A stretch of DNA of 64,000 nucleotides, taken from assembly GCA_964352085.1 (NCBI GenBank), contig CAYGPN010000009.1, positions 44,539 through 108,538 of the forward strand, written 5' to 3'. A program made the translations under genes and the position numbers. The notes under the pieces are model-generated. The model saw nothing but the letters and a program-made list of their open reading frames with translations. It had not been told where the DNA came from and made no database searches. This stretch comes from an uncultured Gammaproteobacteria bacterium (GTDB lineage: Bacteria > Cyanobacteriota > Vampirovibrionia > LMEP-6097 > CAYGPN01). Position 1 is the first letter of the stretch. The number at the start of each line of letters is the position of its first letter. Below, one piece after another: positions 12,355 through 63,568 of this stretch.

Positions 12355-14181
12355 TTAACGAATAACGCCAGCAATATCTGCAACGAATTCTCTAGATATA
12401 GAATCAAAACCAGTAGTATTAATGTATTCAACATTTACTGAATTGGTAGCTTGATTAAGAGTAAGTCTTAAATTAGCTTTTGTAATATCAACCGCCGCGC
12501 CATCAACTAGTGGTGTAGGAGCGCCTATACCAAAATCAACAGTATTGTTTACTAGATTAACTTTAAGCGGGCATGGAGCAAAGTTATTAAACTTAAGTTC
12601 TCTAGCATCTGCGCCAAAAGCAATAGTATGAACTCTGTTTGCTTGAACTGCATCATTCGGATCAATTGTAAACTTATCAGTATTTAAAAGACCTTGATTA
12701 AGAATCACTGAGCCATTAGTACCCATTGCTGTTAACTCGCCGTTATTGTTTGTGATGTTTATATTATTAGGAGGGTTATTTCCACTTGTATCAGAAATTG
12801 TAACGTTGTTAGTAGTCACGTTATTTCCAACTGGAGTAATAGGCTGACCATTAACAATTAGTGTTCCAGGAATAACAACTGTAGGTGCTGGTGGATTACC
12901 GTTTTGACCATCACTACCAAGAACAATTTGATTGTCAGCTGTCGTAGTAGCGCCTGCTCCAATCGCTGTAGAGTTGTCATTCGATGCCGTAGCGCCTGCT
13001 CCAACTGCTGTTGAGCCCGTGCCTGATGCTGTAGCTGCTGAGCCTAGTGCTGTAGAGTTAGTGCCTGACGCTGTTGCACCATTGCCACCTAAAAGAGTAC
13101 TTGTTAAACCAGTACCAGCTCCAACATTAACGCCAGCAACCGACAAAGTTGTTGCCACTGTTGCAGCGCCTGTTGTATCTAAAGTAGTTACTGTTGCAGC
13201 AGCTGGGTTAGTTCCACCAATAACGGTGTTATCGATAGTACCGCCATCAATGTCTGCTGTAGTTGCTGTAAGGCTTGCTGTATTGCTTGATGTTGATGTC
13301 AAAGCACCAGCATTAGTTGTAGTAGCTGTAAGTGTTGTGAAGCTAGCATTAGCTGGAGTGTTTGCACCAATTACAGAATTATCAATACTAACGCCAGTTA
13401 AAGAACCACCTGTGATTGCAACATTAGATGAAGAAATTCCACCAGTAAAAGATGCGCCTGTAATTGCGCCTGTTACAGCAAGGTTACCGCTTGCATTTAA
13501 AGTTTCAGCAACTATTAAAGAACCGTTTACTGTAGTTGTGTTTCCAGCTGTTCCAATTGAGTTTAAATTATCTGCTGTTGTGATGTTTGGCTGAAGAGCA
13601 GCTACAGAAAGGTCTGGAGTCGTTGTACCATTAGTTACTGTAATAGAAGCGTCAGCTGAAGCTACAGAAGTGACTGAACCTCCTCCTCCACCGCCGCCAG
13701 CGTTAGCTTGAAAACTAGGAGCACTAACACCATTAGAAGTAAGAATCTGACCAGCTGTTCCGGGACCCACTAAAACAGGAGCGCCAGTATTATCAAAAGC
13801 AATTATTTGACCAGCTTGAAGAATATTAGTAGCAAAGTCAACTGCTTCAATATTAGTTAAAGCGTTACCAGTACCATTTGCGTCAAATGAAATATTAGTT
13901 AAAGGACCTTGGAAAAGAAAAGGATTACCTTCAAAAGTAAGAACACCATTAGCAGTATCAATAGTACCTAAACCATCAGCAATTGCTGCATCAGGTAATT
14001 GAAATGCTGTAGCCGAAAAACCATCTGGCGCATTTGAATTATCAAGCGTTGTTCCACCTGGTCCAGCAATGTTTTGCTGAAGCGTTGCATTGGCTGGCGC
14101 TGATACTAAAGTCAGTGACAGTATTGTTGACAGCAGAAAGCCACCAAATTTCTTATTTTGATTCTTTTTCATAATATTCAT
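12355..14181 (-). CDS. Secreted fibre/adhesin-like protein with phage tail-fibre-type repeats (GGxIDNxxIG…FTTL) and YadA-head-like NSTAxG repeats.
   Basis: Likely start is MNIMKKNQNKK at 14181 (GGGGAAAGGA RBS), with a signal peptide ending …VSAPANA. The track ORF extends further upstream to 14304. Gly7 run; repeats ITGGSLTGVSIDNSVIGANTPANASFTTL and IDGGTIDNTVIGGTNPAAATVTTL; NSTALGSAATASGTGSTAVGAGATASNDNSTAIGAGA. Confidence 0.55.
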   Translation of the reverse strand: MNIMKKNQNKKFGGFLLSTILSLTLVSAPANATLQQNIAGPGGTTLDNSNAPDGFSATAFQLPDAAIADGLGTIDTANGVLTFEGNPFLFQGPLTNISFDANGTGNALTNIEAVDFATNILQAGQIIAFDNTGAPVLVGPGTAGQILTSNGVSAPSFQANAGGGGGGGSVTSVASADASITVTNGTTTPDLSVAALQPNITTADNLNSIGTAGNTTTVNGSLIVAETLNASGNLAVTGAITGASFTGGISSSNVAITGGSLTGVSIDNSVIGANTPANASFTTLTATTTNAGALTSTSSNTASLTATTADIDGGTIDNTVIGGTNPAAATVTTLDTTGAATVATTLSVAGVNVGAGTGLTSTLLGGNGATASGTNSTALGSAATASGTGSTAVGAGATASNDNSTAIGAGATTTADNQIVLGSDGQNGNPPAPTVVIPGTLIVNGQPITPVGNNVTTNNVTISDTSGNNPPNNINITNNNGELTAMGTNGSVILNQGLLNTDKFTIDPNDAVQANRVHTIAFGADARELKFNNFAPCPLKVNLVNNTVDFGIGAPTPLVDGAAVDITKANLRLTLNQATNSVNVEYINTTGFDSISREFVADIAGVIR

Positions 14182-14230
14182 TTTCCTTTCCCCGTTATTC
14201 ATTCGATTTCTCCCCCTCACATTTAACTGT

Positions 14231-15652
14231 CTATTGAAGGACCTCCGTGCTGTAAACAGCAACTGGTGATTGTGGTGTAAACACTCCTGGGAATGATTCA
14301 ACATTAACTAAATTAAGAACACCATTTGCTATAAAAACTCTAAGAAGCATATCTTGAACTAAAAGTGATGTTCCAAGAGATGTTGGAGCTGTATTTAAGT
14401 TTGTTACTTGAGCTGTTAGAGGCAATTTAACATTAACCGGATTTCCGTTAGTATCTAATCCAATGATTAATTGCTCGTTGTTTAAAAGAACACCATTAGT
14501 AATAGTGATTCTTCTAGCAATTGCATTTGCACCATTGATGTTATTCAATGGAGTATTGAAAGCAACTGGATTAGTGTTAAGTGCTAAAGATTGTGTTTCG
14601 TTGTTTGTAACTGGATTATTATTTCCACCACCAGCAATTACACAATCACCAACATCTAAAGTACCGTTCCCATTCTGATCAGTAATTCCAGGAGCATCAA
14701 AACAATTTGCACCAGCTGCACCAGGAGCGCCTGTACCACCACTAGGACCAGCAGGACCAGGAGTTCCAGCACCACCAGAACCGCCGCCGCCTGTTACTAA
14801 AAGTGTTAAAGCTGCTTCAGAATTACTAGTGTTACCAAAAACTTGATTTGTGTCTGTTGCAAAGTAAATTGTTCCAGGAGCTACAGTCGCCGGTCTTTGT
14901 GCTGCTGTACCTGAAAGGAAATTTGTGCCACCTGTTGGATTAACTATTTCATTTTGAACGTTAATTACTCTACCTCTTAGCTTACTTGTTGTATTTTTAC
15001 CAGTAGCCTTAAAGTGAATATCAAATCTAGATCCTTCATCAGTCATTCTTGGAACAACACCATTAAATTTTGAAGGCACCATAGCCATCATCAAATGGTT
15101 AGGAAGTTTTCTAGCTATCTCGATGATCTGCTCATCGTTAAAATTATTTGTAAGTGCTGGACCACTAACATCAGAAACTGAAAGGTTACCATCTGGGAAA
15201 AATGTACCTGTAAAGCGTTCAACTGTTTTTCCGTTTTCACCAAGTAGAGTGAATTCATATTGGTTGCCAGACTGTCTTAGCCCCTTGAGAAGACCTCTAA
15301 CAACAATGTTATTTTTCTTAGAAGCTTTTACTGAAAAATCACCAACATTAATTTTAGAACCGTCATCCAAAATTTCTTTTACTTCAACAACAGGAACACT
15401 ATTTTCTGGAAGTCTAAGATTTTTTGCTCTTCTGATAACAAACTTTACTTGAGCTTCATCAGTACCATTAGCCTTTACAATGTTGTCTCTACCAACAAAT
15501 TGAAGTAAAACTCTTTGATCGTCCGGCACGCCGTTATTAGTTTGTAAGCCTTGAATACCTAGATCGATTACTCTTCTTGCAGAAGCTGGGCTAATTGCTA
15601 GGCCTGCGATGAGCGTGAAACTTAGAATTATAGATTGGAACTTTTTAAACAT
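14231..15652 (-). CDS. Secreted protein with a collagen-like Gly-X-Y segment and one Cys-bracketed DxNGNG calcium-binding-like motif.
   Basis: Signal peptide MFKKFQSIILSFTLIAGLAISPASA; GGGGSGGAGTPGPAGPSGGTGAPGAAGA followed by CFDAPGITDQNGNGTLDVGDC. Confidence 0.55.
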   Translation of the reverse strand: MFKKFQSIILSFTLIAGLAISPASARRVIDLGIQGLQTNNGVPDDQRVLLQFVGRDNIVKANGTDEAQVKFVIRRAKNLRLPENSVPVVEVKEILDDGSKINVGDFSVKASKKNNIVVRGLLKGLRQSGNQYEFTLLGENGKTVERFTGTFFPDGNLSVSDVSGPALTNNFNDEQIIEIARKLPNHLMMAMVPSKFNGVVPRMTDEGSRFDIHFKATGKNTTSKLRGRVINVQNEIVNPTGGTNFLSGTAAQRPATVAPGTIYFATDTNQVFGNTSNSEAALTLLVTGGGGSGGAGTPGPAGPSGGTGAPGAAGANCFDAPGITDQNGNGTLDVGDCVIAGGGNNNPVTNNETQSLALNTNPVAFNTPLNNINGANAIARRITITNGVLLNNEQLIIGLDTNGNPVNVKLPLTAQVTNLNTAPTSLGTSLLVQDMLLRVFIANGVLNLVNVESFPGVFTPQSPVAVYSTEVLQ

Positions 15653-16922: not shown

Positions 16923-19025
16923 TTATGGTAAGTAACTTAAATTCAGGACATGTATGTAGAAACCTAAGCCTAAATCTAATCCTCTAAAGACAATCACATC
17001 TGAGCCTGTATCCTTATAGAAAGCCAAGCCCATATTAGTAAAGTTTGGCGCTGCAGAGCTTGCGTTACCAGCTGCAAAGACTGGCGAGCCTGTGTACTGG
17101 AAGCCTGTAATATCGCCTGTTCCATTAAAGAATATAGTCAAGTTTTGGAATGGCACAGTATTATCATTTATAACAACTCTTGTAACATTCACAGCGGCTA
17201 TCATCGGTGCTAGCGCTAATGTAGCTGGAGTATTTGCTCCTGTTGCAGGTATATTAACAATCTCAGTAGTTAAAGTAGTGTTTGATTCATTATTATCTGT
17301 TGGTCCTGAACAACCTGGATCTAATAAATCAACTAAAGTATCACCATCATTATCTAAAAGATCACTACACTGAGGACTAGACTCTGATGGGTCAGTAGGT
17401 CCACTACATCCCGGATCTACTAAATCAATAGCGCCATTACCATCATTATCAGCTCCATCCTGACACTGTTTAAATTCATTATCATTAGCATTTGCGCAGC
17501 CAGTATCAGCAGGGAAATCAACTAAACCATCAGCGTCATTATCAATACCATCCTGACATTGGTTTACAACATTAAATTCATTATTATCTGATGGTCCCGT
17601 GCAACCCGGATCAGCAGTATCTATTAAACCATCTCCATCATTATCTATTCCATCACTACATGCGGGATTCGGTGGCTCAAACTCAGAGTTGTCATTAGCA
17701 CTTGTACAACCATTATCAGCAGGAAAATCTATCAAACCATCTCCATCATTATCAGCACTATCGCTACATTCAGGCAGTGGATTAAACTCATCATTATCTG
17801 TAGCACTTGAGCATCCTGTATCAAGAGGAAAATCAATTAGGCCATCTCCATCATTATCAACAGTATCTTGGCAAGCAGGAAGAACAGAAGTACCAGGATC
17901 ACCTGCTGGTCCTGCTGGTCCTGCTGGTCCAGAAGCGCCACCTTGGCTCATTAACACATGCTCCCAAGAACCATCTGCTTCTAGTTTTCTACTAAAATAA
18001 ACATCGGTGTCTTGCCCTTGAGCGAAAATTGCAGCACTTAGAGCGCTAGTTCCTGTTAAAGAACTTGAACTTAAACTTGTGATCAATGGATCATCAAAAT
18101 TATCTGGACTTCCACCTCTACTAACAACAGTAATAAAACCATTACCTTCAGCAGTTGTTCTATAAATATCACGATCAAGTGGAGTACCAACTCCAAGTAT
18201 GCTTGTACCTTGAATTATTGTGCTGCCCTCTCCAGTGTTAACTACAAGCTTTCCTTTTTTCAAAGACTTGATTAACCTTTTTTTATTTGGAATGTCAAAG
18301 AAAACACCATCAGGATTTCTTGGGTTAATAGAAACACCAGGAGTCTTTGAAGTTCTCAGCATTAAGTTTGGATCGCGCCATAAACTATCTCTAAACTTTC
18401 TAAAAAGAGTGCTTTCTTCTGTCGTCATATCAGCAACAGTTGGCGGCAACTCAAGTTCACTAATCATTGGAACACTATCCTCTATTACTCTTTTTGCAGC
18501 CATAGCAGGGAGCTCAAATTTAAATTTCTCTCCTCTCTCTCCAATCAAATAAAGATTCATAGCTTCTTCTTGTTGATCGTAAGGAATCGGGATACGGAAA
18601 GTAACTCTTTTTGCAACAGGTCCATTTTTACCTTTATCTGCTTTTCTAATTGGAATCGGGAAAGTGACTTTAAATCTAAATTCTTCTTTTATCGAACCAT
18701 CAATTTGTGGCACAGGCTCGTAGCCCATCGCATTCACATAAGTTCTTGTCGTTGCATTTTCTGGACCTACTAAACCATTAAGGTCTACTTGAAGAGGGAC
18801 TACTGCTACATTGGTTGAACTAACAAAAGTTCTTTCAACATCTTTGCGTCGTAACTTAACTCGAGGCTGCGACAAAGAGCCAGTGTCATCACCATCAGAA
18901 GATTGAATGGTGACGAACCTCGAGGCCTTTGTTGCCGCAAAAACTTCTTCGCCAGTGAAAAAATTCACTAGACATATAATGATTAGTGCTGCAAGTATGC
19001 GGTGCACAAGTTTAGACATTGTCAC
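16923..19025 (-). CDS. Secreted 700-aa protein with a collagen-like GPAGPAGPAGDPG segment followed by seven Cys-bracketed CxDxxDNDGDGLIDFPxDxGC repeats resembling thrombospondin type-3 calcium-binding repeats.
   Basis: Signal/TM N-terminus. Repeats ACQDTVDNDGDGLIDFPLDTGC, ECSDSADNDGDGLIDFPADNGC, ACSDGIDNDGDGLIDTADPGC, QCQDGIDNDADGLVDFPADTGC, QCQDGADNDGNGAIDLVDPGC, QCSDLLDNDGDTLVDLLDPGC and more. First gene of the minus-strand cluster. Confidence 0.55.
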   Translation of the reverse strand: MTMSKLVHRILAALIIICLVNFFTGEEVFAATKASRFVTIQSSDGDDTGSLSQPRVKLRRKDVERTFVSSTNVAVVPLQVDLNGLVGPENATTRTYVNAMGYEPVPQIDGSIKEEFRFKVTFPIPIRKADKGKNGPVAKRVTFRIPIPYDQQEEAMNLYLIGERGEKFKFELPAMAAKRVIEDSVPMISELELPPTVADMTTEESTLFRKFRDSLWRDPNLMLRTSKTPGVSINPRNPDGVFFDIPNKKRLIKSLKKGKLVVNTGEGSTIIQGTSILGVGTPLDRDIYRTTAEGNGFITVVSRGGSPDNFDDPLITSLSSSSLTGTSALSAAIFAQGQDTDVYFSRKLEADGSWEHVLMSQGGASGPAGPAGPAGDPGTSVLPACQDTVDNDGDGLIDFPLDTGCSSATDNDEFNPLPECSDSADNDGDGLIDFPADNGCTSANDNSEFEPPNPACSDGIDNDGDGLIDTADPGCTGPSDNNEFNVVNQCQDGIDNDADGLVDFPADTGCANANDNEFKQCQDGADNDGNGAIDLVDPGCSGPTDPSESSPQCSDLLDNDGDTLVDLLDPGCSGPTDNNESNTTLTTEIVNIPATGANTPATLALAPMIAAVNVTRVVINDNTVPFQNLTIFFNGTGDITGFQYTGSPVFAAGNASSAAPNFTNMGLAFYKDTGSDVIVFRGLDLGLGFYIHVLNLSYLP

Positions 19026-23819: not shown

Positions 23820-24503
23820 TCATTGATGCAAGCACACCTTAGTTGAAACCTCTCTGCCTAAATTTGGATGGATCAAACGATAGCCGTACTCATACTTAGC
23901 TTCATCAGCTGTGTAATTTAAAAGATTGAAGCTAGCTATTTTACCAAGAGGCGATTTATATTTATCAATATTATCAACGTTATTAGTTTTCTTTCTTACC
24001 TTCTCTAAAAGCTTTTCAGGGAAAGCATCTGGAGAAAGGTAAATCACACCGGTGCATCTACCATGAACATTTGACATCAAATCATCCATGCGAGGTATTT
24101 CTTCCTGCGCGCCAGGATGCAAGATGCGAGCTTTAACGAACTTATCTGTTGATGAATCTTTTAGATAAATATCAGTGATTGCATAATTATCTTTTTTAAC
24201 CCAGAAAGGATTTTTAATAGTTTTAATTTCTATTTTTTTTGTTCTTGCAATTGTAGACCACATTTCTTTTTGTAAATTATAAAGTCCATTTTGGTGAACT
24301 AGATAGAAAAAATCTCTAACTAAAAAAACTACAGTCGCGCGAACTAAATTATCAATTTCAGCATCACCTGCTTGAAAATCAATATTCATGCAAACCTGTT
24401 TAAGATCTTCTGGTTTCCAAGAGCGCGGCTCAAACAAAACATCTTCCATGCCCTGCAATTCTTCTATACGTTTTGATACTGTTATAGTCACTTCTTTCCT
24501 CAT
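23820..24503 (-). CDS. Hypothetical protein.
   Basis: 227-aa ORF with no recognisable motif. Confidence 0.35.
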   Translation of the reverse strand: MRKEVTITVSKRIEELQGMEDVLFEPRSWKPEDLKQVCMNIDFQAGDAEIDNLVRATVVFLVRDFFYLVHQNGLYNLQKEMWSTIARTKKIEIKTIKNPFWVKKDNYAITDIYLKDSSTDKFVKARILHPGAQEEIPRMDDLMSNVHGRCTGVIYLSPDAFPEKLLEKVRKKTNNVDNIDKYKSPLGKIASFNLLNYTADEAKYEYGYRLIHPNLGREVSTKVCLHQ

Positions 24504-24529: not shown

Positions 24530-25363
24530 CTAGGCATTTACAGATCCCCAAAGGAATTTATCCCTTAAGATATTGTAGAAGCTAAGCTTCTTACCTTTAA
24601 GTCCAGCAAGTTTAAGTTTATAAGGTGACTTTTGCACAATAATTTTAGAGCCTGGTTTTAGTTCTATAAGTTCTTGACCATCAGCTTGCATAAAAAACTT
24701 AATCTCGTCGCGGCTATGAATAACTATTGTTTGATCATTAGAAATTACATGCGGGCGACTTGTTAAAGAGTGTGGTGCAATAGGTACTATTTGAAAAGCT
24801 TGAATGCCTGGATCCATAACTGCTCCTCCAGCACTAAGCGCGTAGGCTGTTGATCCTGTTGGCGTGCAAACTATAAGCCCATCAGATCTAAAACTAGAAA
24901 GAAGATCTTCGCCTACATAAAGATCTGTGTAAAGAAGATTTGCTAAGTGCGAGCGGTTAATAACTATATCGTTCAATGCATGAAACGATATATCTAGCTC
25001 AGGCAGATAACCCTGGAGCATATCACGATCTTCAATAATTATATTTTCGTGATTAATATATTCAGCTAATTCTTCAAGATCAATATCAGCAGATTCTGAC
25101 AGGAAGCCCAAATGTCCATGATTAATTCCCAGAATTGGGATCTCATACTTGCAAACATTTCTTGCTGTATTTAAAAAAGTACCATCCCCGCCAAAAACAA
25201 TAATTAAATCAGAATCACTATCTATAGGCTCCCAATCTTTTTCTTCTTTCCCGGTAGTTTGGATCCAAACTTTATATTTATCTTTAATAAGATCAGCAAG
25301 CTCATCGGCTCTTTCTTTGAGCTTCTCTTTGATTGGGTTATAAAGTATACCGATCTTTTTCAT
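24530..25363 (-). CDS. nadK: NAD+ kinase.
   Basis: GGDGTFL and NHGHLGFL motifs in the usual spacing. Confidence 0.7.
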   Translation of the reverse strand: MKKIGILYNPIKEKLKERADELADLIKDKYKVWIQTTGKEEKDWEPIDSDSDLIIVFGGDGTFLNTARNVCKYEIPILGINHGHLGFLSESADIDLEELAEYINHENIIIEDRDMLQGYLPELDISFHALNDIVINRSHLANLLYTDLYVGEDLLSSFRSDGLIVCTPTGSTAYALSAGGAVMDPGIQAFQIVPIAPHSLTSRPHVISNDQTIVIHSRDEIKFFMQADGQELIELKPGSKIIVQKSPYKLKLAGLKGKKLSFYNILRDKFLWGSVNA

Positions 25364-25375
25364 GCGCTTAGTTAA

Positions 25376-26533
25376 TTATAAAACAGTAGCTAGCCTAGAC
25401 CAATGGCTAGTTTGAACATTATCAGAAATTTGAAAGGCTTCTTCCTTATTACAAAGCAAATAAGCTTTGGAATCTGGCTTAAGCTTCACAAAAGCCTCTA
25501 AAGATTTTCCATATTCTTTTTTTGGTGTTGCTGTGAGTTTCACTTCTGTTGCTATCACTTGCCCTTTATACTCAATTATAAAATCAACCTCTAAACCATT
25601 ATTGTCTCTAAAAAAATATATGCTTGGTTTTTTTCCTTGATGGTTAAAGAACTTAACAAGCTCACTTAAAACCAATCCCTCAAAAAGAGCTCCAGACATT
25701 GGTCCTTTTTGTATTTGCTCTTCACTTGCGTGCCCTGTAAGATGGCTTACTATTCCTGGATCCAAGAAATATAATTTTTGAGATTTCACTATACGCTTAC
25801 CTAAATTATTATGGTATGGAGGCACCAGATAAATTAATTGGCTTTTTTCTAATAAGGCAATCCAAGACTGAACTGTTAATTTGCTTACACCAAGCTCTTT
25901 TGATAGAGAAGCAAAATTCAATTCCTGAGAACTTCTTAGAGCTATTAATTTTATAAACTGGTCATAAACTTTTATATGCTCTTTTTTTATATTTGCTCTT
26001 ATATCCTTATTTAAAATTGTGTCAATGTAAGAATCAAACCATAATGTTCTATCCATTTCTTTAATATTAGGTTCTGGATACAATCCTTTAAGTACGATTT
26101 TAGACCAAAGTGGCACTTCTTTTGAATACAATTCTTGAACAGAGAAAGGATTTAAAGATAGAACAGCCATGCGCCCAGCAAGGCTTTCATGAACATCAGC
26201 CATTAGGTTAAATTGCTGCGATCCAGTAAGAACAAAAGCTCCTTCTTTTTGCTCATTATCAACTTTCTTTTTTATATATGAAAGTAAGTCAGGGGCGTTT
26301 TGAATTTCATCTATAATAAGCGGGCATTCATTATATTTTAAAAACAAGTCGGGGTCTTCATTTGCTTGCCTGCGTGTTTCTATATCATCCAAGCTCACAT
26401 AGTTATATTCTGGCAATATCGCTTTTAAAAGCGTAGATTTGCCAGACTGCCTAGCACCAGTTAATAAAATCACTTTAAACTGAGCGATTGCTTTTTTGAG
26501 AATATTTGAAAGATCTCTCTTAAAATATGGCAC
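25376..26533 (-). CDS. AAA+ ATPase of the COG1373/DUF4143 type with a C-terminal PD-(D/E)xK-like segment (paralog 1).
   Basis: Walker A TGARQSGKST, Walker B LIIDEIQ, and C-terminal …GLEVDFIIEYKGQVIATEVK. Confidence 0.6.
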   Translation of the reverse strand: MPYFKRDLSNILKKAIAQFKVILLTGARQSGKSTLLKAILPEYNYVSLDDIETRRQANEDPDLFLKYNECPLIIDEIQNAPDLLSYIKKKVDNEQKEGAFVLTGSQQFNLMADVHESLAGRMAVLSLNPFSVQELYSKEVPLWSKIVLKGLYPEPNIKEMDRTLWFDSYIDTILNKDIRANIKKEHIKVYDQFIKLIALRSSQELNFASLSKELGVSKLTVQSWIALLEKSQLIYLVPPYHNNLGKRIVKSQKLYFLDPGIVSHLTGHASEEQIQKGPMSGALFEGLVLSELVKFFNHQGKKPSIYFFRDNNGLEVDFIIEYKGQVIATEVKLTATPKKEYGKSLEAFVKLKPDSKAYLLCNKEEAFQISDNVQTSHWSRLATVL

Positions 26534-26563
26534 AAATATATTATACCAAAGTTAAGTGCTACT

Positions 26564-26641
26564 TAACATACGTATGAATTTTAGCTATTTTTATGCCATA
26601 TTTCATACAAAAAGCAAGTCATGCTTAACATATGTATAAAT
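26564..26641 (-). promoter_or_regulatory. Two direct copies, about 60 bp apart, of TGCTTAACATAYGTATRAAT containing palindromic cores (CATACGTATG; ACATATGT), in the promoter region of AAA-ATPase paralog 1.
   Basis: gtgctacttaacatacgtatgaatt (26557-26581) and gtcatgcttaacatatgtataaatc (26619-26643). They lie between the tlyA stop codon and the AAA-ATPase gene start at 26533. Confidence 0.4.
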
Positions 26642-27417
26642 CAGTCTAGCCTAAAGTGAGCTAAAAACTCCACATTACCTTTAGCGCCTTTAATTGGTGA
26701 TTCTGTTAAAGCTAGCTTTTTATAACCCTGCTCTTCTATCTGGCTAATTACTCTTTCCACTATTTCATTACGAATCGTTTCGTCAGTGATCACACCTTTA
26801 AATTTATCAGCTATTTTTTTACCTGCTTCAAATTGAGGTTTAATCAGAAAAACGATATCTGTTTTATCATCAGCTAAAACAATCTTTAAATTTTCCAAGA
26901 TCTTTGTAATAGAAATAAAAGAAAGATCTGCAACAACCATATCAACTTGCTCATTATCAGGGAGCTTAAGCTCTTCTCTTTTTAAATCTTTTACATTTTT
27001 CCCTTCGATATTTAAAATGCGTTTATCATCTCTAATTTTATAAGCAAGCTGCCCTTTGCCTACATCTATTGCTATCACTCTTTTAGCGCCATTTTGAAGT
27101 GAGTAGTCAGTGAAGCCACCAGTCGATGCGCCCAAATCCAAAATCACTTTATCTTTAAAATCTAATTTAAAATCCTGATGAGCTTTTTCAAGCTTGTAAG
27201 CGCCTCTACTAACGTAAGGCATAGACTTATCCTGAACTTCTATTAGATTAGGGTTCTCTTCGAGTTTTTTTATACTCACTTGAGTGCCAGCTTTATTCTG
27301 CACTTGACCAGCTACTTTTACGTAATTAGACATAATTGCAGTGCGCGCCTTTTCGCGGCTATCATAATAGCCTTGCTCAAGAAGTATTTGATCTAGTCGT
27401 TTTTTAGACAAATTCAT
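26641..27417 (-). CDS. tlyA: TlyA family rRNA 2'-O-methyltransferase (hemolysin A-like) with an S4 domain.
   Basis: N-terminal S4-like KRLDQILLEQGYYDSREKARTAIM and an FtsJ-like SAM motif ILDLGASTGGFTDY. Confidence 0.7.
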   Translation of the reverse strand: MNLSKKRLDQILLEQGYYDSREKARTAIMSNYVKVAGQVQNKAGTQVSIKKLEENPNLIEVQDKSMPYVSRGAYKLEKAHQDFKLDFKDKVILDLGASTGGFTDYSLQNGAKRVIAIDVGKGQLAYKIRDDKRILNIEGKNVKDLKREELKLPDNEQVDMVVADLSFISITKILENLKIVLADDKTDIVFLIKPQFEAGKKIADKFKGVITDETIRNEIVERVISQIEEQGYKKLALTESPIKGAKGNVEFLAHFRLD

Positions 27418-28078: not shown

Positions 28079-28420
28079 AGTTTATCTACAGATAGATTGC
28101 TTCGCTTCACTCGCAATGACGGTTTCTAGCCTTTATATTCAAATAGTTGCGTCATTACCAATAATAAAAGCCTTAAGAATACTGTAGAAAACTGTTTATA
28201 ACTTGTAGAAAAGTCTACAGAGAAAGTAGATAAAAATAGGCTCTTTTTCTATTAAAAATCGAAACTGTTCATAACTTTAAAACTGTAGAAAGTTTTCTAC
28301 ATCAATTCTCTAATACAGAAGCCCTCTTTGGGACTTATCTACAAAAACTTATTAGCCTACTACTACTTTTAATATATATAATCTATTGTTCTAATAGTAA
28401 GTATAAATATAAAAATCTCA
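28079..28420. promoter_or_regulatory. Cluster of DnaA-box-like 9-mers (TTATCTACA / TTTTCTACA, both orientations) followed by an AT-rich stretch, lying upstream of dnaN. Candidate oriC.
   Basis: TTATCTACA at 28082 and 28337. TGTAGAAAA (the reverse complement of TTTTCTACA) at about 28185 and 28205. TTTTCTACA at about 28295. CTTTCTACA as a reverse complement at about 28284. AT-rich aatatatataatctattgttctaatagtaagtataaatataaaaat at 28370-28420. Confidence 0.45.
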
Positions 28421-29628: not shown

Positions 29629-29766
29629 GTCATTACGAGCAATTTTATGTCATTGCGAGTAAAGCGAAGCAATCCCATGGATCACCACGTCGCCTTTGGC
29701 TCCTCGTGATGACATGCTAGCTGAACTCCTCGTGATGACATGCTAGCTGCGCTCCTCGCAATGACG
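29629..29766. repeat. Intergenic palindromic repeat element cluster, with modules gtcattgcgag / gcgaagcaatcc / atggatcaccacg / ctcgtgatgac.
   Basis: Directly visible; shares modules with the loci at 40280, 41526, 49419, 61240 and 63569. Confidence 0.8.
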
Positions 29767-31552: not shown

Positions 31553-32455
31553 TTACAACCCTTCTTTCCTAGCTTCCCTGAGCTCTTTTCTTGTTATGCC
31601 AGTTTGACTAAGATCTGGTGTGCCTTTTGCTCCCATTTTTATTAATCTAAGAATCAAGCCTCTAGGACCATAGGAATCTTCTATATTAAATTTACGAATG
31701 AGTTCAGGTCTAAAAAATCTGAATCTCCTCATGTTTGTTCTAAAATCACTAAGATCTAAGCCTTTTAATGAAAATTTCTTATCACTATTTATAACTTCCT
31801 TATAAACATCTTCTAAGTTTATCCCTAAGGAATCTAAATCAACACCTCGGCTTTTTAAGAACAATAGAACATGAAGATGTTCATTGTCTGCAGCAAATAT
31901 AGCTGCAAGATTATCATCTGCAGAGAAATCAACACCCGGCTTGCCATCAAGAAACTCAAGAACATGAAGTTGCCCATAGAATGCAGTAAATATAGCTGTT
32001 TGATTATCACGTGCAGAAAAATCAACACCCGGCTTGCCATCAAGGAACTTAAGAACATTAAGATGTCCACTCGGAGCCGCCAATCTAATTGCTTCATTAT
32101 CATTTGCAGCAGGGTCTGCACCAGCAGAAAAAGCAAGTTTTACTTCTTCAAGATTTCCTCTTTTTGAATGTTCTATAAGAGCATTATCCTTATCTTCCTG
32201 GCTCATATTAATATATGGATTCTCTAATTTTCTAGAAGTCTTATTAGTATTAGAATCATCAGGAGGATCACTAGGTGGTGGATTGGCAGATCCTGTTGCA
32301 GAATTGGGTATATGGTGATGCAGTTCTTTTTTATTTATCTCATTTGGTTCTTTGGAAGAATCTGAAAAATGCTTTATACCTCCACCTGAATTTGCTGCAC
32401 TTATTGGTGGCGCGAATCTTTGTTCTATTTGGGCTTGGTATACCTCTAGACCCAT
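31553..32455 (-). CDS. Ankyrin-repeat protein with a Pro-rich N-terminus.
   Basis: Tandem ~33-aa repeats …GADPAANDNEAIRLAAPSGHLNVLKFLDGKPGVDFSARDNQTAIFTAFYGQLHVLEFLDGKPGVDFSADDNLAAIFAADNEHLHVLLFL… matching the ankyrin consensus (xxGxxxLHxAAxxGHxxVVxxLLxxGA). Confidence 0.6.
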   Translation of the reverse strand: MGLEVYQAQIEQRFAPPISAANSGGGIKHFSDSSKEPNEINKKELHHHIPNSATGSANPPPSDPPDDSNTNKTSRKLENPYINMSQEDKDNALIEHSKRGNLEEVKLAFSAGADPAANDNEAIRLAAPSGHLNVLKFLDGKPGVDFSARDNQTAIFTAFYGQLHVLEFLDGKPGVDFSADDNLAAIFAADNEHLHVLLFLKSRGVDLDSLGINLEDVYKEVINSDKKFSLKGLDLSDFRTNMRRFRFFRPELIRKFNIEDSYGPRGLILRLIKMGAKGTPDLSQTGITRKELREARKEGL

Positions 32456-32582
32456 GGTTTAAGTATATACTGATCTTAAAGGCTTTATCTATAGCTGAAA
32501 ACCCTTATTTTAAAGATGATAGTCTCCTAATTAGCATGAATTTAGAGAATCTAATCTCCAAATTAAGGGTAAAATAGAGAAT

Positions 32583-33713
32583 ATGCATATAAACCGGGCT
32601 CTTAAAGTAGAGATAATCAGCAAGCTTAAAGATAGTAATAAAATAATCATCTTATATGGCCCCAGACAGATTGGTAAGACCACCCTGGCTAACAGGGTCA
32701 TTGAGGATCTTGGTTTTAGAACCTTAAGCATTAATGCTGATGAGCTTAAATATAATGAGATTCTTTCCAGTCGCGATTTAACTAAGCTCAAATCTTTAGT
32801 AAGCGGTTATGAATTGCTTTTTATAGATGAGGCACAAAGAATAAAAGATATAGGCATTAACCTAAAAATCCTTAAGGATAATTTAGCTGATTTGAAAATT
32901 ATAGTCACAGGTTCCTCAACTTTAGATTTAGCAAATGAACTAAAAGAACCTTTAACAGGAAGAACCTGGACCTATAATCTTTATCCAATATCTTTCCTTG
33001 AGTTGAAAGAGCATTTTAATGACTTTGAACTAAAAGAACAGCTAGAAGAGAAAATGATCTTCGGTCTTTACCCTGAGCTTTTTAGTATCGAAAACAGAGA
33101 AGAAAAAATTCAATATCTTGAAGAAATCAGCAGGTCTTATTTATATAAAGATGTCTTGGAGATTTCAAATATTAAGCATTCTTATAAGCTTAGAGATCTT
33201 CTTAAGTTGCTAGCTTTTCAGATAGGCTCAGAAGTCTCTCTCAATGAGCTTGGCAGACAATTAGATATGTCTAAAGAAACAGTAGCTAATTACATTAATC
33301 TTCTTGAGAAATCTTTTGTACTTTATAGATTGAGTGGTTTGAGCCGTAATCTTAGAAAAGAAGTCTCTAAAATGGATAAGATTTATTTTTATGATCTTGG
33401 TATAAGAAACATTCTTATAGATAATATGAAAGATCTTAAAGATAGAGATGATAAAGGAAAGCTTTTTGAGAATTTCTTAGTTATAGAACGTTTAAAACGA
33501 AATAAATACACAGCAAATTACTGTTCAGAGTATTTCTGGAGAATATATACTGGCGCTGAATTGGATTATGTAGAAGATAAAGATGGCAAATTTTCTGCTT
33601 ATGAATTTAAGTTTGCTAAAGAAAAAGCTAAAGTACCACAATCATGGCAAGAGGCTTATTCGGGTTCTTTTGAGCTTATTAATAAGGATAACTTCTTAGA
33701 ATTTATTCGCTAA
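32583..33713 (+). CDS. AAA+ ATPase of the COG1373/DUF4143 type with a C-terminal PD-(D/E)xK-like segment (paralog 2).
   Basis: Walker A YGPRQIGKTT, Walker B LLFIDEAQ, and C-terminal GAELDYVEDKDGKFSAYEFK. Confidence 0.6.
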   Translation: MHINRALKVEIISKLKDSNKIIILYGPRQIGKTTLANRVIEDLGFRTLSINADELKYNEILSSRDLTKLKSLVSGYELLFIDEAQRIKDIGINLKILKDNLADLKIIVTGSSTLDLANELKEPLTGRTWTYNLYPISFLELKEHFNDFELKEQLEEKMIFGLYPELFSIENREEKIQYLEEISRSYLYKDVLEISNIKHSYKLRDLLKLLAFQIGSEVSLNELGRQLDMSKETVANYINLLEKSFVLYRLSGLSRNLRKEVSKMDKIYFYDLGIRNILIDNMKDLKDRDDKGKLFENFLVIERLKRNKYTANYCSEYFWRIYTGAELDYVEDKDGKFSAYEFKFAKEKAKVPQSWQEAYSGSFELINKDNFLEFIR

Positions 33714-33726: not shown

Positions 33727-34893
33727 CTACAAAAGACTTTCTATAGCCCATTTAGCTGTTTCTCTTAAAACTTTGTCTTCGTGATTAATATACTTTTCTA
33801 TAAGCGGCTTAGATTTTTCTGATCCTGAGTTAGCAGCAGTAATTATCGCGTTGCGTATCATACCCTTGCGCTTAGGTCTTGATAATGGTGTGCGGCAGAA
33901 TTTTTTATGAAAAATATCATCAGCTTCTTTTTCACTCAGTTTTCCGTGAATATGATCCATTTCTAAAATTTCAGGTAGGTAAAGCCAGTGTCCTAATCCA
34001 CTCTCAGGCTTAAATTCTTCCCATATATTACTCTCAGATTGTTTTTTATTATAGGGACAAATAGTCTGACATAAATCACAACCAAAGACCCACTCACCCA
34101 TATTTGGCATAAGATCTTTATCTATTAAAGATTTAGTTTCGATGTTTAAATAACTAATACATTTAGTGGCATCTATCTGGTGATCACCTACAAGTGCGTT
34201 AGTCGGGCAAATATCTTGGCAGCGAATGCAAGCCCCGCAAGTACCGCTTGCAGAGTATGATTCGCTTTCATCTGTATCAAAATCTATATCGGTAACTATT
34301 TCAGCAATAAAATTAAAACTACCTGTTTCTCTTGATATTAAAAGAGTGTTTTTGCCTTTAAAACCAAGACCAGCTTTTTTAGCATAAGATTTTTCCATTA
34401 AAGGTACTGAGTCAGTGAATACACGCGAGTTTTGAAATATATTAAATATCTCGTCTGGTTTTTCTAGATTTAACTCTTCACATTTTTTACTTATAAAATC
34501 TATATCGTTTAGCTTTTTAATGAGCTCTTTAAGTTTCTTTTTAATGACTTTATGATAATCAAGGCCAACAGCATAATTAGCTACCTTCCCGTGATCATTA
34601 GAGGGTCTAGGAGGAGCTTCACTATAATAACTAACAGTAAAGATGATGATAGTTTTAGCGCCCTCAAAGAGCTCATTAGCTCTAGCATTTATAGGCTCAT
34701 CTCTAAGCAGATAGCTCATCTCACCTGCATATCCCTTTTCTCTCCATTCTAGATATTTTTTTTCAGAATCAGGGAGTGGCTTAGCTCTAGTGATACGCAC
34801 ATCATTAAAACCCATATCAAGGGCAGCTTTTTTTAATAGAGATTTAGCTAGAGTTTTATTCAATCTAATCGAACATGCCAGAAACAGAACCAT
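33727..34893 (-). CDS. queG: Epoxyqueuosine reductase.
   Basis: Two 4Fe-4S ferredoxin motifs ([16 protein letters not shown]; [11 protein letters not shown]) and an overall QueG-like length. Confidence 0.7.
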
Positions 34894-40274: not shown

Positions 40275-40279
40275 TTCCC

Positions 40280-40340
40280 GTCATTGCGAGCCCGAAGGGT
40301 GAAGCAATCCATAGATCACCACGCTTCGCTCGTGATGACA
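40280..40340. repeat. Single copy of the ~60-bp palindromic repeat element (reverse orientation) between rplA and the phosphatase-like gene.
   Basis: gtcattgcgagcccgaagggtgaagcaatccatagatcaccacgcttcgctcgtgatgaca is the reverse complement of the unit at 41526-41736. Confidence 0.8.
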
Positions 40341-40456: not shown

Positions 40457-41524
40457 ATGGCAATTGGTGTAGCAAGTCAAATAAAACCCACGCCTCAAGT
40501 AATGGGGATGCAAGAGCTTCTTGCAAATCCTAACTTTGATTTTTCAAAAATTGATCCTGAGATTTTAAAATCTCTGCCTCCTTTAGATCCTGCGCAGCTT
40601 CATCAGTTTTCAAATTTAGATTTATCAGAAGCCTCATCATCAATTTCAAACACGGACTTAACAGGGAGGACAAAGTCTGAAGCTCTTAAAGATATAAATA
40701 TTGCACCTAAATCTCAGATACCGAAAGGGTCTGAGATTATTACTTTTGATTTAGATGAAACTCTTATCTCATGTAACAAACTTACTAACGCTATGAAGAA
40801 AGCCGGTCAGAAGCTCGGCTATAAACTTTATAAATCTAAAGAAGGTAGTGAGTTTTTTGTAAGACCTGGTGCTGAAGAGCTTCTTAAATGGATTAAAGAT
40901 CAAGGTTTTAAGATAGTAGTTTCAAGTCGTAATTTTGAAAAGTATGAAGATGATATTTTAGCAAGTTGTGGTTTGGGTCAGTATGTGGACTACACTACTG
41001 GACATATGGATTTAGTTGAGTCAGCTAAAGCTGCTGACAAAAAGAAATTTCCTAATCATCCTAATAATAAATTAGGAATACTTACTTGGTCAGGAAGAGT
41101 TACCCACTCTGTCTTTAAAGGAATTTTTAAAGATACTTTGTGGCGTGGTTTTAAGCACTATGTTTTAAGAGACCAAAATATCAAACCATATTTCCCTGTT
41201 GCAGCTTGGCGTAATAATAAATATCCACCGTATCTAAGCGGGTCTAGAGTTTTGATAGATAATCTTTATGAAGAAACTCTTATTAACAGTAAAGCTTCAG
41301 AAGATTGGGTTGCACTTAACCCTGGTGAATTCTATGGTGATAAAGAAGAGCCTAAGAATAAAGATGGCGAATATACTTGGGTGGCTAATATTAAAAAAGG
41401 TCTGAATATTCAGAAGAACCAAGGCTGGAAAGCCCTGTATGAACGTGAGTATCATAAAAAACCAATAGATGATAAGGTTCCACTTGCTGAGCAAGCTAAA
41501 GCCGAGCCTAAGATTAAAGTTTAA
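40457..41524 (+). CDS. HAD-superfamily phosphatase of the FCP1/NIF (NLI-interacting factor, CTD-phosphatase-like) type, with an N-terminal extension.
   Basis: Motif I ITFDLDETLIS (DxDxT with Leu-Asp-Glu-Thr-Leu as in FCP1-homology domains), then FFVRPGAEELLKWIKDQGFKIVVSSRN (motif II Ser/Thr region) and later Lys/Asp-containing segments. This domain type is mainly eukaryotic. Confidence 0.5.
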   Translation: MAIGVASQIKPTPQVMGMQELLANPNFDFSKIDPEILKSLPPLDPAQLHQFSNLDLSEASSSISNTDLTGRTKSEALKDINIAPKSQIPKGSEIITFDLDETLISCNKLTNAMKKAGQKLGYKLYKSKEGSEFFVRPGAEELLKWIKDQGFKIVVSSRNFEKYEDDILASCGLGQYVDYTTGHMDLVESAKAADKKKFPNHPNNKLGILTWSGRVTHSVFKGIFKDTLWRGFKHYVLRDQNIKPYFPVAAWRNNKYPPYLSGSRVLIDNLYEETLINSKASEDWVALNPGEFYGDKEEPKNKDGEYTWVANIKKGLNIQKNQGWKALYEREYHKKPIDDKVPLAEQAKAEPKIKV

Positions 41525-41525
41525 A

Positions 41526-41736
41526 GCCATCACGAGTGAAGCGTGGTGATCTATGGATTGCTTCACCCTTCGGGCTCGCAATGACAACCCGTCATCACGA
41601 GCGAAGCGTGGTGATCCATGGATTGCTTCACCCTTCGGGCTCGCAATGACAACCCGTCATCACGAGTGAAGCGTGGTGATCTATGGATTGCTTCACCCTT
41701 CGGGCTTGCAATGACGGGGCTATGCTCGCAATGACA
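41526..41736. repeat. Three tandem copies of the ~60-bp palindromic repeat unit (gtcatcacgagYgaagcgtggtgatcYatggattgcttcacccttcgggctYgcaatgac) separated by aacc.
   Basis: Directly visible. Each unit is an imperfect palindrome (gtcatcacgagcgaagcg … cgcttcgctcgtgatgac in the reverse-complement sense). Confidence 0.85.
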
Positions 41737-49418: not shown

Positions 49419-49540
49419 GTCATTGCGAGCACGGAATTGTCATTGCGAGCAGAGCGAAGCAATCCATGGATCACCACGTCGCCTTTGGCTTCTCGTGATG
49501 ACAATGCGTCATTGCGAGCAGAGCGAAGCAATCCAGCGAG
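49419..49540. repeat. Two copies of a palindromic repeat element variant (gtcattgcgagcagagcgaagcaatcc…).
   Basis: Directly visible; same modules as the other loci. The ORF-track ORF at 49383-49586 is a translation artefact of this repeat. Confidence 0.8.
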
Positions 49541-58611: not shown

Positions 58612-58651
58612 GATAATATGATGTTTTTGGCATCATATTATCGGGTATAAT
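58612..58651 (+). promoter_or_regulatory. Perfect 12-bp inverted repeat (gataatatgatg-N7-catcatattatc) overlapping a TATAAT -10 box upstream of AAA-ATPase paralog 3. Candidate operator.
   Basis: Directly visible at 58612-58642; tataat at 58646-58651; gene start at 58663. Confidence 0.45.
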
Positions 58652-58662: not shown

Positions 58663-59877
58663 ATGAAATCAATAAAAAGAGAAATTAACCAAGATATTTT
58701 AAAATATCTTGGAAACGATCAAATACTGCTTTTAATTGGTGCAAGGCAGGTAGGTAAGACTACAATTCTGAGGCAGATCAAGACTCATCTAGAAGTTCAA
58801 AGCTTGCAGACTCATTTTATTAATTTAGAAGATCCAGAGTACTTAGCATTAATAAATGAATCACCTAAAAATCTTTTTAAAATATTGTCTATAAATCTAG
58901 AAAGTAAATCTTATATTTTTATAGACGAGATTCAGTATCTAGATAATCCTAGTAATTTTTTGAAATATTTTTATGATGAATACGGCGAGAAAATGAAGCT
59001 TATAGTTTCAGGTTCTTCTGCCTTTTATATAGACTCAAAATTTCAAGATTCGTTAGCTGGAAGAAAAAAGATCTTTTATGTGCGCAACTTGTCATTTAGT
59101 GAATTTCTATTATTTAAAGACCAAGAAGCATTATCTAAAAAAAGCTATATCTCTTTAAGTCTTAAAGAGAAAGACATAGTGCAGCGTGCTTTTGAGGAGT
59201 ATCTTGTCTATGGAGGCTATCCTAGAGTGGCTCTAAGCTCTGATCTTGAAGAGAAAAAAGAGATTTTAAGAGAGCTTGCTTACTCATATATTAAAAAAGA
59301 TATTTTTGAATCAAAAATTAAAGATGATAAGTCTTTTTATGCTTTGATGAGAATTCTGGCTGACCAAGTAGGCTCACTAGTTAATTCAAATGAACTGGCG
59401 TCTACCCTAGCTATTTCCAAGTCTAGTGTTGATAACTATCTAAATATCTTGCAGAAATCTTTTCATATATTTTTAGTGAAACCTTTTAGTAAAAACATAC
59501 GTAAAGAGCTTACTAAAATGCCTAAAGTCTATTTTGCTGATATGGGCTTGAGGAATTTTCTGGTGCGCGACTTTGAGCCATATGCTCTTAGAAGTGATAA
59601 AGGAGAGCTTTTAGAGAATATAGTTTTTAGGAAACTTTTAGATACTAATCATCATGAGGATATTATGTTTTGGAGAACTGCTGAAAAGCAAGAGCTAGAC
59701 TTTGTCTTGCAGGATAAAGCTGCAATTGAAGTTAAGGCTAATCCAGAAAAGTTTAATGTCAAAAAATACCAAAAATTTATAGAAGTTTATCCGGAAAAAG
59801 AGCTTAGTTTGGTTTCTTATGATTACAAAGGCTCTGCAGACTTTCCGGTTAAATATAAAGATGTTTTAGAGCTTTAA
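58663..59877 (+). CDS. AAA+ ATPase of the COG1373/DUF4143 type with a C-terminal PD-(D/E)xK-like segment (paralog 3).
   Basis: Walker A IGARQVGKTT, Walker B IFIDEIQ, and C-terminal QELDFVLQDKAAIEVK. Confidence 0.6.
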   Translation: MKSIKREINQDILKYLGNDQILLLIGARQVGKTTILRQIKTHLEVQSLQTHFINLEDPEYLALINESPKNLFKILSINLESKSYIFIDEIQYLDNPSNFLKYFYDEYGEKMKLIVSGSSAFYIDSKFQDSLAGRKKIFYVRNLSFSEFLLFKDQEALSKKSYISLSLKEKDIVQRAFEEYLVYGGYPRVALSSDLEEKKEILRELAYSYIKKDIFESKIKDDKSFYALMRILADQVGSLVNSNELASTLAISKSSVDNYLNILQKSFHIFLVKPFSKNIRKELTKMPKVYFADMGLRNFLVRDFEPYALRSDKGELLENIVFRKLLDTNHHEDIMFWRTAEKQELDFVLQDKAAIEVKANPEKFNVKKYQKFIEVYPEKELSLVSYDYKGSADFPVKYKDVLEL

Positions 59878-61214: not shown

Positions 61215-61239
61215 ATCTGTTCTATATTAGCATTTAGCT

Positions 61240-61267
61240 GGATTGCTTCGCTTTACTCGCAATGACA
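61240..61267. repeat. Partial copy of the palindromic repeat element (ggattgcttcgctttactcgcaatgaca).
   Basis: Matches the 3' half of the unit; lies between leuC and the chaperonin gene. Confidence 0.7.
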
Positions 61268-61270
61268 GGC

Positions 61271-63563: not shown

Positions 63564-63568
63564 GCGTT

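Follow-up and report, generated by a model that had tools for sequence, protein, structure and literature searches.

Proteins that join an AAA_14 ATPase to a DUF4143 domain have been catalogued since 2012, when DUF4143/COG1373 was listed as PD-(D/E)XK family #100 in the survey of Steczkiewicz et al. 2012, with its function given as 'unknown' (PMC3424549). The same layout, a single-gene ATPase fused to a PD-(D/E)xK domain, was used to describe PDC-S01, reportedly the fourth most common 'defence' match across prokaryotes with ~29,500 bacterial and 10,000 archaeal instances, for which validation is pending (PMC12988326). PDCs are untested candidates that were nominated because some of their members lie within BREX, DISARM or type I restriction-modification loci (bioRxiv 10.1101/2024.01.29.577857, Payne et al.). 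Other hints come from gut bacteria, where COG1373 is among the genes listed as shared between genera (PMC10782964), and from a Thermus megaplasmid, on which an AAA_14/DUF4143 gene showed a 6.6-fold induction by plasmid DNA (PMC4406477). Here, we describe three genes of this family, denoted copies 1, 2 and 3, in a 64 kb stretch of the contig CAYGPN010000009.1 (positions 44,539 to 108,538 of the forward strand; hereafter the window), together with a fourth gene, copy 4, outside of it. On balance, we consider it probable that they constitute autoregulated, horizontally exchanged cassettes for ATP-dependent nucleases, most likely with a defensive role.

Architecture and ancestry of the encoded proteins

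A preliminary description of the window had pointed out three open reading frames (ORFs) with Walker A and B motifs followed by a C-terminal D…(E/D)xK pattern, and had regarded the C-terminal segment as consistent with a restriction-endonuclease-like fold (DUF4143). All three ORFs are present, namely copy 1 at 25376..26533 on the minus strand (385 amino acids, GTG start, with AAA_14, winged helix-turn-helix and DUF4143 (PD-(D/E)xK) modules), copy 2 at 32583..33713 on the plus strand (376 amino acids) and copy 3 at 58663..59877 on the plus strand (404 amino acids), the latter two also being AAA_14 plus DUF4143 members. The motif strings were found in each protein and can be aligned with one another, reading GxRQxGK[ST] for Walker A and DE for Walker B. 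Pfam scores were 97.7–106.8 bits for AAA_14 (gathering cut-off 27) and 125.5–155.7 bits for DUF4143 (gathering cut-off 28.1) in copies 1–3, always in the order AAA_14 to DUF4143 and within one polypeptide; for copy 1, the corresponding E-values were 2.7e-30 and 1.1e-45. The DUF4143 assignment is hence valid for all three copies.

In an alignment of 58 family sequences, the residues G26, R28, G31, K32 and T34 of Walker A, D75 of Walker B and R121 (copy 1 numbering) were invariant, and so were the nuclease residues E285, D317, E330 and K332, in copies 1–3 as well as in the other sequences. The same nuclease residues were conserved in a 19-sequence alignment of the domain. The AlphaFold2 (AF2) models were of high confidence, with a predicted local distance difference test score (pLDDT) of 92.4 for the whole copy 1 and of 94.3 for the C-terminal 134 residues modeled alone. 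The domain-only model shows an alpha-beta-beta-beta-alpha-beta core, formed by helix 29–47, strands 54–58, 64–71 and 74–80, helix 88–100 and strand 105–110. Its top matches in a Foldseek search of the PDB were nearly all PD-(D/E)xK nucleases (probability ~1.0, template modeling score 0.45–0.56), and the structural neighbors included Can2, Cdn1, the DdmD nuclease, McrC, Hjc resolvases, Bax1, AF1548 and AgeI as well as the R2 retrotransposon endonuclease. A nuclease-fold similarity of the C-terminal segment, for which a check had been set beforehand, was thus found by structural comparison, and the fold of the domain model together with the invariant acidic and lysine residues bears out the PD-(D/E)xK interpretation.

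For the ATPase part, resemblance was seen to Orc1/Cdc6 and clamp-loader ATPases, and the structural neighbors included the transposition target selectors TnsC and MuB. The features of AAA+/STAND-type proteins were all found: both Walker motifs are in place, and the P-loop core is succeeded by a module with helical and winged-helix parts. A C-terminal repeat sensor (TPR, LRR or WD40) is absent from copies 1–3, in which the C terminus is occupied by the nuclease according to Pfam and the AF2 model. A sequence search of the PDB with the copies returned P-loop matches only, no NCBIfam family or equivalog was matched, and there was no PHROG family match past the P-loop. As judged from the models, each copy is one chain of three modules, a P-loop NTPase (AAA+/STAND-like), a helical plus winged-helix module and a PD-(D/E)xK nuclease with a predicted intact active site. 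At the protein level, copies 1–3 are ordinary AAA_14-DUF4143 members, and the fusion of an ATPase to a PD-(D/E)xK domain was already known.

What is unusual is their local density, as the preliminary description had remarked. The family hidden Markov model (HMM) matched three times in the 64 kb window and not once in a 1.27-Mb background, consisting of 80 loci from a QueG-seeded genome scan (QueG relatives 30–39% identical, from other phyla). The three genes had also been called dispersed paralogs; they are divergent members of one family, not local duplicates, and represent deep subfamilies with separate histories. Copy 1 is most closely related (50–59% identity) to proteins from metagenome-assembled genomes named Candidatus Caenarcaniphilales or Cyanobacteriota at NCBI. 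Copy 2 has a 79% identical ortholog (P0242) in L009, one of the related contigs that we retrieved and numbered with the prefix L (L007 corresponds to GCA_013216135.1), and further relatives at 60–65% identity in Peregrinibacteria, Armatimonadota, Patescibacteria and large genomes. For copy 3, the best named relatives, 58–61% identical, belong to the Patescibacteria/candidate phyla radiation (CPR). A local tandem or segmental duplication was rejected, because copy 1 shares only 25–29% identity with copies 2 and 3 and each copy has closer relatives in other genomes. Copy 4 (385 amino acids) is located on the same contig, 4.4–5.6 kb beyond the left edge of the window, at L145:13384-14541 (window position 1 is L145 position 8941, with the locus reversed), and is 43% identical to copy 2.

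The comparison of copy 2 with its L009 ortholog yielded a pN of 0.139 and a pS of 0.836 for non-synonymous and synonymous sites, respectively (pN/pS ~0.17), indicating purifying selection. Because of this selection and of their host-like composition, we regard the copies as functional genes and not as recent arrivals; a recent transfer, considered on the basis of composition, was unsupported by the GC content at third codon positions (GC3) and by codon usage.

Among 1.84 billion cluster representatives (50% identity), a profile search returned 51,966 family members at E ≤ 1e-3. Family members were carried by 504 of 72,556 plasmids, and in Bacteroides finegoldii (L096, NZ_OY725962.1, a 12.4-kb record deposited as 'plasmid') one of them directly follows rteC in the order tetQ-rteA-rteB-rteC, an arrangement typical of CTnDOT-type conjugative transposons. 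A phage origin was rejected: matches occurred in 17 of 50,697 phage records, mostly unannotated faecal fragments, and at 46 loci among the 2.9 M viral contigs of IMG/VR, and no PHROG family was matched beyond the P-loop.

Control regions upstream of the genes

Promoter palindromes had been reported beforehand for two of the copies. These palindromes are real, but in fact all three genes carry one, in each case followed by a −10-like hexamer. The proximal control region of copy 1 (26540..26567, minus strand) consists of the palindrome GTTAAGT-agc-ACTTAAC with 7-nt arms (26551-26567), TTTGG and the hexamer TATAAT (26540-26545), which ends 6 nt before the GTG start codon and forms a TGn-extended −10 box with leaderless-type spacing. 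TTAAGT-N3-ACTTAA and a −10 box at the same 6-nt spacing are conserved upstream of the orthologs in L008 and L010. A distal site (ATGTTAAGCATGACTT, 26616..26631, minus strand), which is related to the proximal one, starts 10 nt past the TlyA stop codon; it may act as an additional operator or else as a weak terminator. L008 possesses a perfect palindrome with 10-nt arms, GCATATTAAG-tg-CTTAATATGC, at the corresponding distal location.

Upstream of copy 2 (32539..32582, plus strand), we found the palindrome AATTTAGAGA-atctaa-TCTCCAAATT (32539-32564), in which 9 of 10 arm positions match, then 5 nt and the hexamer TAAAAT (32570-32575), which ends 7 nt before the ATG. The L009 ortholog has a version of this palindrome with perfect 10-nt arms, and the 31 nt from 32555 to 32585 are 100% identical between the two. 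DNA similarity between copy 2 and L009 begins ~50 nt ahead of the ATG and does not continue beyond the stop codon, with 72% identity in the coding part and saturated synonymous sites.

The control region of copy 3 (58612..58651, plus strand) comprises a perfect palindrome with 12-nt arms, GATAATATGATG-tttttgg-CATCATATTATC (58612-58642), GGG and the hexamer TATAAT (58646-58651), which is separated from the ATG by 11 nt; the palindrome loop contains a −35-like TTGGCA. This palindrome is unique in the window and was matched by no shuffle. Its half-site, GATAAnATG, recurs upstream of CPR relatives, in two direct copies in L097 and also in L098. Within the first codons of copy 3 (~+27 to +50), there is another perfect palindrome with 10-bp arms, CCAAGATATT-ttaa-AATATCTTGG (58689-58712), which the scan flagged as terminator-like on the minus strand and which could be a second regulatory site.

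Perfect arms of at least 8 nt were found in none of the 49 remaining gene-upstream regions of the window. Across the family, palindromes with arms of this length were present in 21% of 48 unique upstream regions, while the proportion was 4.9% among 596 control genes and 3.1% among shuffles (Fisher p = 2.5e-4). A −10-like hexamer 13–34 nt before the start codon was found for 50% of the family genes vs 13% of the controls (p = 3.6e-9), and one at the leaderless-type distance of 5–8 nt for 12% vs 3% (p = 0.007).

Judging from the sequence comparison, palindrome and −10 box travel together with the gene, because copy 2 and its L009 ortholog share only the ~50 nt upstream and the ORF, although they reside in different slots. 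Since the palindrome is specific to the subfamily and moves with the gene, we infer that it is bound by the winged helix of the encoded protein itself, i.e., that the genes are probably autoregulated. The protein family is already known. For this cassette anatomy, the combination of an own promoter with palindrome, slot swapping and flanking repeats, no description was found in the literature searched, and it appears to be undescribed.

Chromosomal slots, flanking repeats and possible mobility

Copy 1 fills the gap between the genes for a TlyA-like methyltransferase (26641-27417) and NAD kinase (24530-25363), with all three on the minus strand. Copy 2 lies between an ankyrin-repeat gene (31553-32455), beyond which DnaN and a phosphate-binding protein (PBP) are encoded, and the convergent gene for QueG (33727-34893), their stop codons being 13 nt apart. 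The neighbors of copy 3 are AroA (57078-58517, divergent) and a LeuC-type aconitase large subunit (59874-61214, convergent, the stops overlapping by 4 nt), with LeuD and GroEL further out. Copy 4 directly follows the gene for the small subunit of ribonucleotide reductase (RNR), and next come a 206-amino-acid orphan and a Fic-domain gene (L145:15385-16563).

The same slots are filled differently in related genomes. L008 is syntenic with the window for DnaN (58% identity), PBP (40%), QueG (47%), phosphoribosyl pyrophosphate (PRPP) synthase (72%), quinolinate phosphoribosyltransferase (QRPTase) and the ribosomal proteins L11 (80%) and L1 (63%), but where the window has copy 2, its QueG|PBP slot holds an oppositely oriented gene of the copy 1 type, with an identity of 51% to copy 1 and of 29% to copy 2. 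L009 is syntenic for GroEL (60%), LeuC (84%), AroA (58%) and LeuD (75%), and its LeuC|AroA slot contains a gene of the copy 2 type (79%) plus a gene for an unknown protein of 600 amino acids, whereas the window has copy 3 there. In L007, the RNR of which is 79.5% identical, a gene of the copy 1 type (27% identical to copy 4) is located ~460 nt downstream of RNR, at the place of copy 4 here; LeuC and RNR are ~80% identical to their counterparts in the corresponding assembly, GCA_013216135.1. These identities and the names of the metagenome-assembled genomes with homologs are the basis for an assignment to the Caenarcaniphilales. Thus, insertion points are reused by different subfamilies and in either orientation.

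The edges of the cassettes are 0–13 nt away from a host stop codon. The distance from the LeuC stop is 0 nt for copy 3 and 3 nt in L009, that from the QueG stop is 13 nt in both genomes, and the TlyA and RNR stops are 10 and 8 nt away, respectively. Three of seven independent related loci are in regions syntenic with this contig and there in slots that are occupied here, a coincidence that, by a rough estimate from a small sample, would be far above random scatter. Other relatives occupy unrelated places, such as downstream of a resistance-nodulation-division (RND) efflux operon, beside a Y1 transposase (L094) or inside a polysaccharide cluster. Most likely, the family genes are therefore accessory, horizontally exchanged single-gene cassettes, and neither local duplicates nor housekeeping genes.

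The latter possibility, housekeeping factors of DNA metabolism acting in replication restart or repair or in the manner of Orc/Cdc6 and present in several copies in this lineage by chance, would fit their location among core genes (one of them close to dnaN), the host-like composition, the purifying selection and the resemblance of the NTPase to Orc1/Cdc6 and clamp-loader ATPases. We consider it very unlikely, as the position, orientation and subfamily of the genes vary between related genomes while the flanks are conserved, the nearest named relatives of copy 3 belong to another phylum, the family is absent from the 1.27 Mb of loci from other phyla, and members exist on plasmids and on a conjugative element and match no NCBIfam equivalog.

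Several cassettes are flanked by direct repeats, for which the shuffle maximum was 11–13. Copy 4 is enclosed by a perfect 27-nt repeat (~35 nt with one insertion or deletion), the upstream copy of which consists of the last codons and the stop codon of RNR, and the L009 cassette by a perfect 29-nt repeat that equals the end of LeuC including its stop codon. The units between these repeats measure ~1.19 and 1.22 kb (~1.23–1.25 kb with one repeat copy) and contain one gene each and no recombinase. In L010, repeats of 12–16 nt occur at every array junction, and at some loci it is the operator palindrome that is repeated. Altogether, flanking repeats scoring at least 14 were detected for 7 of 44 family genes vs 1 of 135 size-matched controls (p = 2.4e-4). 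Neither terminal inverted repeats nor shared end motifs were found at the junctions of copy 4, L009 or L010, and there is no transposase within the cassette.

A region of L010 (7731-12021) resembles a cassette array. It comprises two family genes, a toxin-antitoxin pair of the HEPN/MNT type, a bAvd/23S-IVP-like gene and a helix-turn-helix (HTH) gene, with copies of an imperfect palindrome of ~150 nt (32-nt arms, core TCCACATTGGTTCGAT) between them, and a DNA methyltransferase gene follows after the array (12401-14080). The two family genes are convergent and sit inside a split palindromic element, in the order left arm, core, first gene, core, second gene, core, right arm, while intact copies of the element flank the bAvd-like gene. 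The core of these junctions is absent from the window.

These insertion scars could mean that the family genes are selfish mobile elements. The protein, with its ATPase, winged helix and nuclease, would cut either shortly after the stop codon of a host gene or at a palindrome; repair or fill-in would then insert the cassette and leave a target duplication of 12–35 bp, and any defence-like effect would be secondary. This explanation would account for the perfect 27- and 29-nt repeats that copy the 3′ ends of the upstream genes around recombinase-free single-gene units, for the two L010 cassettes inserted in the core of a palindromic element with duplication of that core, for the family-wide enrichment of flanking repeats, and for the reuse of the same insertion points by different subfamilies in either orientation. 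It would also agree with a nuclease fold close to Hjc resolvases and the R2 endonuclease, an ATPase close to TnsC and MuB, and the portability of genes that have their own promoter each, several with leaderless-type spacing. Yet a PD-(D/E)xK nuclease by itself is unable to join DNA, terminal inverted repeats or shared end motifs were not found, and the variable repeat lengths (12–16, 29 and ~35 nt) are unlike those produced by a transposase with a fixed stagger. Moreover, copies 1–3 are without repeats, identical multi-copy insertions were not seen, and the genes, with their ameliorated composition and the purifying selection on them, look like stable residents. We therefore judge a selfish element to be an unlikely explanation. 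The stricter form of this idea, that AAA_14-DUF4143 genes are autonomous single-gene mobile elements that choose a site past a host stop codon or at a palindrome or cruciform, make staggered cuts and insert promoter plus ORF under a 12–35-bp duplication, appears quite unlikely to us.

It is alternatively conceivable that the cassettes are carried along passively by machinery whose genes lie elsewhere, with the function of the protein unrelated to mobility. This could be a site-specific recombinase, integron-like or Xer-like, that uses palindromes as its sites, or simply homologous replacement via the flanking genes after DNA uptake. The L010 array, in which unrelated genes are split by ~150-nt palindrome copies with a common core, resembles a cluster of recombination sites and, with unrelated single genes separated by one imperfect palindromic element, is similar to integron cassettes and attC clusters; in L094 a Y1 transposase adjoins a family gene, and the flanking housekeeping genes, 40–84% identical between genomes, could mediate replacement. 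Integrons possess IntI, however, and neither an integron integrase nor any other integrase was present in the loci retrieved. Insertion at attC takes place at the R-box at the base of the palindrome, whereas in L010 it occurred in the palindrome centre, and in contrast to integron cassettes, those of the window lack a shared junction element and carry their own promoters. The 27–29-nt repeats of copy 4 and L009 copy local coding sequence and not a shared recombination site, and homologous replacement would leave the target duplications unexplained. We consider passive transport improbable.

The window additionally contains dispersed intergenic repeats resembling repetitive extragenic palindromic (REP) sequences or miniature inverted-repeat transposable elements (MITEs), with the cores GTCATTGCGAGC…GAAGCAATCC and GTCATCACGAGCGAAGCGTGGTGATC, at 28090-28137, 29629-29714, 40277-40339, 41501-41722, 49419-49537, 61236-61283 and 63566-63723. 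Three tandem 65-nt units (41528-41722) and 22-nt tandem units (63566-63679) belong to them. The preliminary description had proposed to look for an association of the three genes with palindromic repeat elements; none of the REP-like repeats abuts or adjoins any copy, and a link was rejected.

Some further observations concern the neighboring genes. Copy 1 ends only 12 nt before the start of the NAD kinase gene and is co-directional with it and with the tlyA-like gene (24530-27417, minus strand). The tlyA-like and NAD kinase genes are neighbors in many bacteria. Because of the shared direction, the 12-nt gap and this common adjacency, copy 1 may be transcriptionally coupled to NAD kinase. The ankyrin-repeat gene (31553-32455, minus strand) has an internal 93-nt tandem repeat (31866-32051) and lies in the QueG|PBP slot together with copy 2; since L008 lacks it in that slot, it is probably accessory too. 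Between 56527 and 61214, the large- and small-subunit genes of a LeuC/LeuD-type dehydratase are split by aroA plus the copy 3 cassette, and the same split exists in L009 with a different cassette. ORFs of 227 (23820-24503, minus strand), 583 (54751-56502, plus strand) and 164 (63014-63508, plus strand) amino acids have no Pfam match; the first of them was also called as a gene in Logan contigs of the same genome (L002, L003). A 700-amino-acid ORF (16923-19025, minus strand) includes 85–105-nt tandem repeats (17285-17881) that are 61–76% identical, and the adjacent ORFs at 12355-15652 share short repeats as well; these may encode repetitive surface proteins.

A proposed role in genetic conflict and comparison with known systems

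The preliminary description had further suggested, as speculation, a function in defence or connected with mobile DNA. This fits with the filing of the proteins under PDC-S01 and with their cassette-like behavior, but not with the location of the window copies, which lie outside defence islands. The PADLOC HMMs for PDC-S01 matched at near full length, copy 1 with PDLC04790 (5.2e-104), copy 2 with PDLC04789 (1.8e-142) and copy 3 with PDLC04789 (8.5e-102). A check for defence-island linkage placed copies 1–3 among housekeeping genes, as the neighbors in the window encode NAD kinase, TlyA-like methyltransferase, adenylylsulfate (APS) kinase, DnaN, PBP, QueG, AroA, LeuC/D and GroEL. A conflict context does exist in a relative, since in L010 two family genes stand beside the HEPN/MNT pair, the bAvd-like gene and the DNA methyltransferase. 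We base the interpretation as genes of genetic conflict on this array, on the Fic-domain gene near copy 4, on the occurrence on plasmids and on a CTnDOT-like element, on the listing of COG1373 among genes that different genera share, and on the induction observed in Thermus.

A tentative scheme that combines these elements starts from the cassette, a short control region plus ORF situated 0–13 nt away from a stop codon that belongs to a conserved host gene. By binding to the palindrome, the winged helix of the protein itself would keep expression low. A trigger such as foreign or abnormal DNA would then lead to ATP-dependent assembly of the NTPase, upon which the nuclease would cut DNA. Such cutting would play its part in genetic conflict, by countering mobile elements or through abortive infection.

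Several observations speak against autoregulated, exchanged and defensive nuclease cassettes. No family member has a demonstrated activity, and in the sole such assay that we found, one PDC-S01 gene failed to protect E. coli B from T4, T5 or T7. Restriction-modification, BREX or CRISPR genes are lacking near the copies in the window, where all neighbors are housekeeping or non-defence genes. The case for slot replacement consists of three related loci, with no empty slot among them, copies 1–3 have no flanking repeats above shuffle level, and their composition is that of long-term residents (GC3 z = 0.0–0.6; codon-usage rank 24–35 of 52). With regard to regulation, the palindromes could be bound by another regulator instead. 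A two-hexamer (−35/−10) promoter scan, in place of which our promoter calls used the conserved −10 hexamers and the family-wide enrichment, did not rate the upstream sites above shuffles, and the scan scored the main palindrome of copy 3 as terminator-like on the minus strand.

The family comprises ~52,000 clusters at 50% identity, yet its function is undemonstrated. The window and its relatives offer testable handles, namely the unit of palindrome, −10 box and ORF, the subfamily-specific palindromes, the reused insertion points and the long perfect target duplications. Should these features hold, they would help to decide whether PDC-S01 acts in immunity, is a selfish element or combines the two, and they would affect how such genes are counted in censuses of defence systems. 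If the genes were indeed autonomous elements, they would constitute a minimal mobile element of a kind not recognized before, and much of the 'immunity' tallied by defence-finding software would be selfish DNA.

In comparison with known systems, the archaeal ATPase_2 proteins PABY2304 (PDB 2qen) and SSO1545 (PDB 2fna), likewise functionally uncharacterized, have a PF01637 plus DUF234 architecture and only ~20% identity to the copies; Pfam ATPase_2 (PF01637) remained below its cut-off (16.9–23.2 bits vs 33.2), so that the resemblance is structural only. The immune STAND NTPases (Avs/AVAST, plant NLRs, Apaf-1/CED-4) have a repeat sensor and an N-terminal effector, whereas the copies lack such a sensor, carry the effector at the C terminus, are 2–3 times smaller and have sub-threshold Pfam nSTAND scores. 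With Can2/Card1, McrC, the nuclease domain of DdmD and Hjc, the C-terminal domain of the copies has the fold and the pattern of catalytic residues in common, but the partner of the nuclease is a P-loop NTPase on the same chain and not a CARF domain, the McrB GTPase or a helicase as in these systems. The closest parallels are COG1373 (Pfam AAA_14 PF13173 plus DUF4143 PF13635), with which the copies share the domain order, the length of ~380–400 amino acids, the Walker motifs and the E…D…ExK signature, and PDC-S01, to which they correspond in the strong HMM match and in the single-gene layout of ATPase and PD-(D/E)xK nuclease. While PDC-S01 was nominated for its embedding in defence loci, the window copies are instead embedded among housekeeping genes.

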